Position numbers and translations under genes: made by a program. Source: a virus (lineage: Duplodnaviria > Caudoviricetes). Taken from it: a stretch of DNA of 64,000 bases. Location: positions 144,459 to 208,458 of IMG/VR virus record IMGVR_UViG_3300015214_000001; one strand, written 5' to 3'. Positions 48,603 through 49,541 of this stretch are shown here, in pieces (within the stretch, counting starts at the first letter, position 1; every line of letters starts with the position of its first letter). The notes beneath the pieces were generated by a model. That model ran no database searches. It saw only the letters and a program-made list of their open reading frames with translations, and was not told where the DNA came from.

Positions 48603-49541
48603 CTAATTGTTGGTGTTTTCTAATACTTGTTTGATTGCACAGAATAGCGGATAGACCACTTGTGGGACTACAGCGTTACCCAGTGCTTTAAGCCTGTCCC
48701 CGCGCTTTTGTACCATACTACGCGGTAACGTGCGCGGCGGTTCATACCATCGCTGAGTATCCCCTCTGTGTGATGGTATGATAGGTCTGTCCAACCAACT
48801 GGATAGCCCATTAACATTTCTACCCATTCTGGGTTTAGTTCTTCTCTTTCTTCTACCCCCCCCCGATACGCAGTCACCTGATCGGTCAAAGGTAATTTGC
48901 TTATTGGATATTTCATTCTGCCTGGCGCTGTTTGAGACCGTGATGTTTTCCAATCCCGCGCCGCTGGCGTTGCCCAGTTCTTCGTGGTAGCCGATAATGA
49001 ACACTCTTTCGCGCTTGTGTGGGAAGCCAATTTGTTCAGCAGATAGCACTTGCCAGAAACAACTATACCCGCTTTCGGAAAGCTGACCAAGTACCAATCC
49101 CAAGTATGCGGGATCAATTGTCCCATCTTTTTGCGTGATTGGCGTGATAAGCCCCGCGACATTTTCCAGCAGGATTGCTTTGGGTTGTACTTCCCTAATA
49201 ACTCTGAGGGTTTCATGCCACATATTTCTAATGTCGCCATCAGCAAGGCGTTCTCCTGCATGGCTGAATGGTTGACAGGGGAATCCTCCAAAAATAAGGT
49301 CAATTGGCTCATTAATATCCTTCTTCCCAAAATTACGCACATCATCATATATGACGGCATTTAGCCAATGGCGACAATGCTTTTTCAATATAGCTTGACA
49401 GAACTTATCTATCTCAACTTGCGAGATTATATCGAACCCCACTACAGAAGCCCCAATGTCCATACCACCTATGCCAGAAAATAATGATATTGCCTTCATA
49501 GAGATACCCTGTTTGTAAATAAAAAGCGCACACGTTATCAT
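48603..49541 (-). CDS. C5-cytosine DNA methyltransferase, alpha chain (motifs I-VIII and X; start likely MKAISLF ~49499)
   Basis: LFSGIGG, GGFPCQPFS, LENVAG, HKRERVFI, RLKALGNAVVP. Confidence 0.9.
   Translation of the reverse strand: MITCALFIYKQGISMKAISLFSGIGGMDIGASVVGFDIISQVEIDKFCQAILKKHCRHWLNAVIYDDVRNFGKKDINEPIDLIFGGFPCQPFSHAGERLADGDIRNMWHETLRVIREVQPKAILLENVAGLITPITQKDGTIDPAYLGLVLGQLSESGYSCFWQVLSAEQIGFPHKRERVFIIGYHEELGNASGAGLENITVSNSARQNEISNKQITFDRSGDCVSGGGRRKRRTKPRMGRNVNGLSSWLDRPIIPSHRGDTQRWYEPPRTLPRSMVQKRGDRLKALGNAVVPQVVYPLFCAIKQVLENTNN
48668..49312 (-). CDS. Overlapping alternative-frame beta chain of the C5 MTase (carries motif IX)
   Basis: Own SD (AAGGA) before MSQLTLF; WATPAARDWK; LNPEWVEMLMGYPVGWTD resembles motif IX, which is missing from alpha. 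Confidence 0.7.
   Translation of the reverse strand: MSQLTLFLEDSPVNHSAMQENALLMATLEICGMKPSELLGKYNPKQSCWKMSRGLSRQSRKKMGQLIPHTWDWYLVSFPKAGIVVSGKCYLLNKLASHTSAKECSLSATTKNWATPAARDWKTSRSQTAPGRMKYPISKLPLTDQVTAYRGGVEEREELNPEWVEMLMGYPVGWTDLSYHHTEGILSDGMNRRARYRVVWYKSAGTGLKHWVTL

Follow-up and report, generated by a model that had tools for sequence, protein, structure and literature searches.

The C5 cytosine DNA methyltransferase M.EcoHK31I of E. coli HK31, the original paper on which is said to be that of Lee, Kam and Shaw in 1995, has been described as an exception, one of two, to the single-chain organization of these enzymes. It is composed of two chains, both of which are needed, alpha with motifs I-VIII plus X, beta with motif IX, and the beta coding sequence lies wholly inside the alpha gene, in a different reading frame (PMC2836561, PMC3404938). 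Deletions at the N-terminus of beta weaken the association of the chains, and in vivo activity is lost when the beta start codons are silenced (PMC2836561; also PMC3404938). M.AquI is another C5 methyltransferase naturally split into two chains that must assemble (PMC3404938), divided inside the variable region, with motifs IX and X together on the second chain. Here we describe a locus with the nested layout in a tailed-phage genome (Duplodnaviria; Caudoviricetes), located in a window of 64,000 nucleotides (nt), i.e. the whole stretch of DNA analysed, which is the last 64 kb (positions 144,459 to 208,458) of the 208,458-bp IMG/VR virus record IMGVR_UViG_3300015214_000001, a record with direct terminal repeats and 39.5% G+C. 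On the minus strand of the window, an open reading frame (ORF) for an alpha chain encloses a second ORF, in the +1 frame, for a putative beta chain, and a tract of nine G (G9) is read by both; the ORF list and a three-frame translation agree on the coordinates (Table 1).

We consider that the whole is best explained by a two-frame, two-chain C5 methyltransferase with a poly-G switch, a reading to which we give a probability of about 0.7. Its two parts differ in strength: activity of the chains as a heterodimer is very probable, and as to selection for switching through a hypermutable G tract we lean slightly in favour. As in M.EcoHK31I, the architecture is nested and alpha has motifs I-VIII plus X; beta contains a motif IX-like stretch, and the literature agrees with the preliminary description of this DNA in presenting M.EcoHK31I as a two-frame heterodimer whose beta chain holds motif IX (PMC2836561, PMC3404938). 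The chain sizes, 298 and 214 residues, are near those of M.EcoHK31I (compare plasmids M38 and C23; PMC2836561). Unlike M.EcoHK31I, the phage enzyme is an orphan, with no recognisable restriction gene adjacent, and has a poly-G tract common to both frames. It is from architecture only that we infer a kinship between the two systems.

The alpha chain contains FSGIGG, GFPCQPFS, ENV, HKRERV and LGNAVVP, and, as had been noticed in the preliminary description, motifs I, IV, VI, VIII and X can be recognised in its translation and motif IX cannot. PF00145 matches its first part only (profile positions 1-176 of 324, E 1.3e-49) and phrog_363 matches it end to end (E 1.5e-61), so that motifs I, IV, VI and VIII, in this order, are accompanied by a significant profile match, as in C5 cytosine DNA methyltransferases. 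By sequence, alpha residues 1-176 align to the solved M.HaeIII (1-166) and M.HhaI (13-175), with E 1e-15, and residues 267-292, the motif X helix, to M.HaeIII 298-323; about 130 residues of a normal enzyme, comprising the recognition domain and motif IX, are missing from alpha. Motifs IX and X and the target-recognition domain (TRD) are not found in one polypeptide, since alpha has motif X only and the rest would be in beta. The maximal alpha ORF (48603..49541, 312 residues) opens at an upstream ATG at 49541, and the start was placed at ATG 49499 (MKAISLFSGIGG) from comparison with homologues, which begin with M-x-x-x-SLFSGIGG. The beta ORF extends from stop to stop over 48668..49360. Its Shine-Dalgarno (SD) sequence AAGGA, the WATPAARDWK and LNPEWVEMLMGYPVGWTD stretches, and its position wholly inside alpha are all as first described, and so is the reading of the G9 tract as S-G-G-G-R in alpha and R-G-G-V-E in beta.

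The +1 ORF within alpha is 230 codons long, against a mean of 53 and a maximum of 112 in synonymous-codon shuffles of alpha, none of which (0/500) reached its length, and the +2 frame is at expectation in the same shuffles. In fact, the nested +1 ORF is open and above the shuffles in 13 of 13 loci (the alpha gene and 12 homologues), with P between 0/500 and 0.032. Among cultured phages, those of Paenibacillus larvae are the nearest relatives (alpha 39% identical), and a beta query matches them in the same gene, one base out of frame; in Mock2 the +1 frame reads WPTPAAQDAK ... LNPDWVECLMGFPIGWTD, and in Paenibacillus phage Bloom both nested ORFs are annotated (BLOOM_56/BLOOM_57). The Paenibacillus larvae phage pairs have the same layout and the same motifs as the pair described here, with matches to phrog_363 and phrog_1008; unlike in this gene, no poly-G tract was noticed in them. 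The genome paper (PMC6070908) does not discuss these pairs as a two-frame enzyme.

We classified, with four small hidden Markov models, the layout of 91 IMG/VR loci, of which 11 were found with alpha and 80 were taken from at least 269 relatives found with a beta alignment. The N- and C-terminal parts of alpha (alpha-N and alpha-C) are in one ORF, with beta in the +1 frame, in 77 of the 91, and all motifs are in a single frame in none (0/91); in the gene under study the alpha-N and alpha-C profiles likewise match one ORF. An apparent fusion of alpha-N to motif IX occurs in four loci, among which L032 consists of two adjacent genes and L016 and L082 look slipped. In another five loci (L034, L046, L064, L074 and L088; alignment A5), alpha-N stands alone and beta is fused in frame to motif X, which is the M.AquI arrangement and differs from that of the gene described here. 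These five beta-plus-X loci constitute a second fixed architecture, M.AquI-like, with alpha terminating after motif VIII and about 100 codons still shared by the two genes.

The codon positions at which homologues diverge show which frame is constrained in each segment. We took 15 homologue pairs and determined, for each alpha codon position (1/2/3), the share of sites that differ. Before the overlap (805 codons) the values are 0.112/0.060/0.360, the ordinary one-frame coding pattern; over motifs IV-VIII, where alpha overlaps the N-terminal part of beta (1492 codons), they are 0.113/0.064/0.226; in the centre (1557 codons) they are 0.336/0.208/0.267, with the peak at alpha position 1, which is the third position of beta; and after the beta stop (279 codons) they are 0.183/0.147/0.376, where the alpha pattern is back. 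The alpha third positions, which are the second positions of beta, are depressed across motifs IV-VIII (Fisher P = 1e-11), and in the five closest pairs the changes are 65/16/13 in the centre compared with 11/3/59 before the overlap (P = 5e-17). Selection therefore acts on alpha at both ends, on beta in the centre and on both across motifs IV-VIII. The beta chain is, as in M.EcoHK31I, encoded in another frame of the same strand, inside alpha, and, in the loci compared here, it is kept by selection.

This pattern bears on the idea that the gene is decaying, i.e. that a formerly single-frame enzyme had its TRD and motif IX scrambled by a pair of frameshifts compensating each other, the inner ORF being a relic, as the lack of motif IX in alpha and the structureless centre of alpha could suggest. 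On the other side, the same layout is kept at 25-40% identity in 77 of the 91 loci, the beta frame is under purifying selection, beta relatives number in the tens of thousands, and the interface of alpha with beta is confidently predicted. The codon-position pattern rules a decayed gene out and, with the two-frame conservation, led us to reject this explanation, the least probable of those considered.

A single full-length enzyme could also be made from the same DNA if the ribosome underwent programmed frameshifts twice, +1 past motif VIII and -1 past motif IX, with the beta ORF being incidental; the order of the coding segments (I-VIII, TRD, IX, X) is, in fact, collinear with that of single-chain enzymes. 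We give this very little weight, because beta is open for about 120 codons upstream of the shift that would be needed, begins at a conserved ATG or SD near the PCQ codons in 61 of 71 loci, and constrains alpha position 3 across motifs IV-VIII; no conserved slippery site was seen, and M.EcoHK31I functions as two separately expressed chains (PMC2836561). The double frameshift was accordingly rejected. The start of beta can be located with some precision: beta extends upstream of the alpha PCQ codons in 68 of 71 complete loci, and an ATG precedes these codons at a median distance of 47 nt in the 61 homologues mentioned above and at 32 nt in this phage.

The assignment of beta is supported by a match to phrog_1008 ('DNA methyltransferase', E 3.9e-20), a family matched by all nine betas tested. 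In WATPAARDWK, a candidate DNA-recognition module of the W-x-T-P-x-A-x-D repeat type, at least 90% of 68 betas retain residues T115 and P116, and the W-x-T-P-x-A-x-D module or modules of beta are probably the target-recognition part. In LNPEWVEMLMGYPVGWTD, P161 and G169 are invariant in the 68 betas and L159, V164, E165, M168, P171, G173, W174 and T175 are conserved in at least 90%. This stretch resembles motif IX of a canonical methyltransferase encoded in the same genome (VRENARIQTFPDDWQF), and in the naturally fused forms it stands about 45 residues before GNAV, collinear with motif X.

Structure predictions are consistent with a division of one enzyme between the two chains. Alpha alone folds as the large domain of C5 methyltransferases, its top fold matches being M.HaeIII (1dct, E 1.8e-13) and M.HhaI, with a predicted local distance difference test score (pLDDT) below 50 for residues 176-274 and confident again for the helix of motif X. 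The prediction for beta alone is poor (pLDDT 62, predicted template modelling score 0.27), and the beta pLDDT falls to 28 beside an unrelated partner. The unstructured alpha centre and the poorly folding lone beta fit obligate partners, as far as such models go. For the alpha-beta complex, the interaction prediction score from aligned errors (ipSAE) is 0.89 (0.89-0.90 in three runs), compared with 0.00 for the best of three controls; the ipSAE mark used is reached by 58 of 80 solved complexes and by 2 of 110 mismatched pairs, counts that are rough (own alignments were used). The runs share at least 73% of contacts, with a partner pLDDT of at least 62. In the predicted complex beta residues 156-178 contact alpha residues 253-296, and the closest of these contacts lie between beta 160-175 (motif IX-like stretch) and alpha 256-279 (motif X region). 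The high score may reflect the solved single-chain C5 methyltransferases and would then speak of likeness rather than of binding.

The proposal, made in the preliminary description, of a two-chain enzyme similar to M.EcoHK31I is supported by the nested frame that is open in all 13 loci examined for it, by the prevailing layout, by the codon-position switch and by the complex prediction. The latter was one of the checks it had put forward, and the modelled pair separated clearly from its controls; another, two-frame conservation across homologues, gave a nested frame that stays open and a divergence that follows an alpha-beta-alpha course.

Several results on beta weigh against this reading. 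No Pfam profile matches beta, used as a single sequence or as 68 sequences, nor does any NCBIfam or PDB profile, and hhalign of the natural beta-plus-X forms against a canonical methyltransferase C-terminus aligned motif X only, with probability 0.3; the motif IX call consequently depends on three things, the short pattern, the contact that is predicted, and the collinearity with motif X in the natural fused forms. Furthermore, published work assigns the TRD of M.EcoHK31I to alpha, whereas the centre of the phage alpha looks like an unconserved linker and W-x-T-P-x-A-x-D is in beta.

The G9 tract lies in the variable linker of beta and in the unconserved centre of alpha, and, as a coding homopolymer of at least 8 nt that sets the frame, it has the form of a contingency locus. 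Slips were simulated for tract lengths from G7 to G11. A G8 takes alpha on into the beta tail (276 residues, LMGYP present and GNAV absent) and stops beta at once (152 residues); with G10, alpha stops at once (215 residues) and beta runs into the alpha tail (236 residues). The TAG that directly follows the G run is the stop for alpha in G10 and for beta in G8. The preliminary description had concluded that one slip disables both chains: the frame arithmetic for G8 and G10 agrees with it and a natural G8 exists, while G10 leaves a fusion of beta with motif X, so that this part of the claim does not hold as worded.

The natural G8 comes from another landfill metagenome, of another study and year. 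The tract is G9 in the contig of run X1, the probable source, and G8 in a 4,966-nt contig of run X2, in which one base is missing at 48856 and no other difference is found over 1,147 nt (48554-49700); run X3 yielded only a 166-nt piece, uninformative on the tract. Length variants among otherwise identical genomes are, therefore, present, thinly documented by one contig at depth 7.7. Among the 91 relatives, seven coding-strand G runs of at least 7 were found inside the gene, against 0.93 expected from the flanks (P = 5e-5), and five in the gene centre, against 0.31 expected; some of the 91 loci are related, which reduces these cases to about five independent ones. The closest relative with DNA (L099, alpha 43% identical) has a G8 at 2103-2110 (= L101:10603-10610), directly after its WATPKARDY module. 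This tract is not homologous to the G9 site and is the only G/C run of at least 7 in 18 kb of that contig; its different place in the same segment suggests an independent gain of poly-G. In L082, an unrelated IMG/VR phage contig, a G8 at 1452-1459 followed by TA was assembled in the -1 state, with alpha fused to motif IX and beta truncated, and one added G restores the canonical nested pair.

The genome contains about 39 G or C runs of at least 8, which are commoner than runs of 6-7. Most are intergenic, in the form TTGACA-N7-G8/9-TA(G/A)AAT, i.e. a sigma-70-like promoter with the G block in its 15-16-nt spacer. Nearly all tracts, including the coding ones, are followed by TA, and the coding tracts share the TA(G/A) flank. 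Neither of the two other C5 methyltransferase genes of the genome contains a nested beta frame; both are ordinary in kind, and each is split into two frames exactly at a G8/C8 tract.

The same two-chain enzyme would result if the G9 were a frame-neutral glycine linker and not a selected switch, and the G8 a deleterious mutant or an assembly error. Both frames are relaxed around the tract, in the only segment that would tolerate such a linker, the G8 is known from a single contig at depth 7.7, where a homopolymer assembly error is possible, and the excess of G runs in relatives might stem from dual-coding constraints alone, GGG being glycine in all frames and a handy dual-frame linker. Against this, exact runs of 8-9 G are far commoner in the genome than runs of 6-7, G tracts stand at the frame breaks of two other methyltransferase genes, tract length is the sole difference in 1,147 nt between two samples, a second lineage (L082) was found in the same -1 state, and Gly-Gly-Gly does not need nine identical bases. 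We regard a linker that is no selected switch as the less likely explanation of the tract, one that still deserves serious attention.

Another view starts from the sequence around the tract, GTGACT-N7-G9-TAGAAG, which appears as a degenerate copy, without the final T, of the genome-wide G8-TA(G/A)AAT promoter element, a resemblance that counts against a tract dedicated to switching. The element could primarily be a copy of this phage G-tract promoter (TTGACA-N7-G8/9-TAGAAT), driving or tuning transcription of the downstream ORF 47989-48585, which would be compatible with the switch. Its hexamers match those of about 20 intergenic copies at 4/6 and 5/6 positions, with the same spacing. We find a primary promoter role quite improbable, because the second hexamer lacks the final T kept by all clear copies, the G9 element is not among the promoters called in a sigma-70 scan, and relatives have poly-G elsewhere without such flanks.

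Hypermutable poly-G tracts have reportedly been described in Campylobacter phages, by Sorensen et al. in 2021. In bacteria, methyltransferases that are phase-variable through simple sequence repeats include the Campylobacter Type IIG enzymes (PMC4889913) and M.NgoAV of N. gonorrhoeae (PMC9577141). As in those systems, the length of a coding G homopolymer sets the frame and length variants exist in natural populations. Unlike them, a single tract stands in a dual-coding segment, so that one slip redirects both proteins and exchanges their C-terminal portions; and, unlike in the bacterial systems, the carrier is a 208-kb phage with about 39 such tracts. The locus adds two things to the M.EcoHK31I kind: genes of this layout make up a very large phage family with a clear dual-frame selection signature, and a length-polymorphic poly-G tract is present in the dual-coding segment of this copy, as poly-G is in several relatives.

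In the mechanism that we propose, one mRNA would be translated in two overlapping frames into the two polypeptides of a C5 cytosine DNA methyltransferase. Alpha would comprise motifs I-VIII, followed by some 90 residues of unstructured linker and by the helix of motif X, and beta would be translated from its own SD and ATG, about ten codons upstream of the alpha PCQ codons. Beta would supply the W-x-T-P-x-A-x-D module or modules and motif IX, the latter docking onto the motif X region of alpha, and the assembly would be equivalent to single-chain M.HhaI or M.HaeIII, in line with what biochemical work has shown for M.EcoHK31I. G9 would be the ON length, located in the sole segment in which the beta linker is variable and alpha unconstrained, and in which GGG is glycine in every frame. 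Replication slippage to G8 would fuse alpha (I-VIII) to the motif IX tail of beta, without motif X, and truncate beta; slippage to G10 would truncate alpha and fuse the front of beta to motif X, without motif IX. We infer that function is lost in the slipped states: either slip should abolish the complete enzyme, which would make the tract a heritable and reversible on/off switch of phage self-methylation. With one slip re-routing two proteins, this may be a compact hedge between methylating, to escape restriction, and not methylating, to escape methylation-dependent defences.

Alternatively, the tract may be a three-way architecture switch and not an on/off one, with at least one slipped state keeping partial or altered activity. 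G9 would then give alpha (I-VIII+X) with beta (TRD+IX), G8 alpha (I-VIII+IX) with a free TRD piece, and G10 alpha (I-VIII) with beta (TRD+X), and the slipped chains may pair with pieces of the two other C5 methyltransferases broken by poly-G. Layouts related to the slipped states are fixed in other phages, for which reason some slipped state might stay active. We consider this version improbable; if true, the phage population would vary which sequences are methylated and not merely whether they are.

The nested design is widespread. Of 8,000 candidates scored against alpha, 7,618 are relatives at E <= 1e-20, the closest of them being 42-44% identical, and a profile of 68 betas retrieved 52,451 representative proteins (protein clusters) at E <= 1e-3, of which 40,710 remain at E <= 1e-10 and 13,675 at E <= 1e-30. 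An earlier notion that the nested genes are missing from databases, drawn from a word-index protein search with beta (6 weak hits), was wrong in view of this exhaustive profile search; the hits were few because the beta of this phage is divergent. A typical beta matched 68 cultured phage records, of Paenibacillus, Lacticaseibacillus, Bacillus, Bacteroides, Porphyromonas and Synechococcus phages, and in tblastn against plasmids it matched eight records, none from E. coli. The two-frame layout is thus no rarity; judging from 77 of 91 loci sampled and from more than 50,000 clusters of beta relatives, it is the standard design of a very large phage family, in which the nested arrangement of M.EcoHK31I is the usual one. 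A description of this layout as widespread in phages was not found in the literature searched.

In three sampled loci (L103:409-1032, L104:1501-2763 and L105:1402-2496) only the beta ORF is called, without a Pfam match, and an uncalled alpha surrounds it in the -1 frame. In other loci alpha is the sole gene called. With one gene called per locus, automatic annotation reports half of the enzyme, which suggests that annotation pipelines may systematically list 'methyltransferases' unable to work alone. The same-strand overlap of about 200 codons, with a clear selection signature in both frames, is one of the longest stretches of phage DNA for which dual coding is well supported, and it offers a good test for gene finders, by which one gene of the two is called.

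Table 1. Features of the two-frame methyltransferase locus and G/C tracts of the genome. Coordinates are window positions unless indicated; A2 is the alignment of nine alpha sequences from which invariant alpha residues were taken.
Feature	Coordinates	Strand	Remarks
Alpha coding sequence	48603..49499	-	298 residues plus stop; catalytic (large) domain; contains motifs I-VIII plus X
Alpha motif I, FSGIGG (S-adenosylmethionine binding)	49464..49481	-	residues G9, I10, G11, G12 invariant in A2
Alpha motif IV, P-C-Q (catalytic cysteine)	49272..49280	-	P74, C75, Q76 invariant in A2
Alpha motif VI, E-N-V	49158..49166	-	E112, N113, V114 invariant in A2
Alpha motif VIII, R-E-R within HKRERV	49005..49013	-	R163, R165 invariant in A2
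Alpha centre (about residues 176-266), linker	48702..48974	-	no conserved columns in A2; beta conserved here
Alpha motif X, LGNAVVP	48663..48683	-	L273, G274, N275, P279 invariant in A2
Beta coding sequence	48668..49312	-	214 residues plus stop; +1 frame, wholly inside alpha; TRD-like part and motif IX-like stretch
Shine-Dalgarno sequence AAGGA	49318..49322	-	5-nt spacer to beta ATG (49310-49312)
Beta WATPAARDWK, candidate DNA-recognition module (W-x-T-P-x-A-x-D repeat type)	48947..48976	-	
Beta motif IX-like LNPEWVEMLMGYPVGWTD	48785..48838	-	
G9 homopolymer	48856..48864	-	C9 on + strand; read by both frames, then TAG in third frame
Candidate promoter TTGACA-18-TATAGT	50182..50211	-	consensus scan, 11/12 matches; best candidate upstream of the transcription unit
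Other G/C tracts in the window	30944-30951, 37303-37310, 50192-50199, 57573-57579, 63491-63498, 63877-63885		about 32 more outside the window
Tracts splitting the other C5 methyltransferase genes	L005:1491-1498 (genome 72518-72525); L004:1928-1935 (genome 69395-69402)		

Some bases of the locus serve conserved residues of one chain and the body of the other: those of alpha motif IV double as the LTLFLEDSPV region at the N-terminus of beta, and the beta stop codon (48668-48670) falls inside alpha motif X. When the locus was compared by megablast with phages and with E. coli genomes, no match came up; the phage is without a close cultured relative. The neighbouring ORFs (46965-47723, 47989-48585, 49563-50144, 50231-50776 and 50721-51203, all on the minus strand) have no PHROG match, and no restriction endonuclease partner was recognised among these five.

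A terminator-like hairpin with a T run (49526-49545, minus strand) lies between ORF 49563-50144 and the alpha start, and spans the upstream ATG at 49541. The candidate promoter stands upstream of ORF 49563-50144 and the methyltransferase and contains a C8 tract (50192-50199) in its spacer, for which reason expression of the methyltransferase unit may also depend on tract length.

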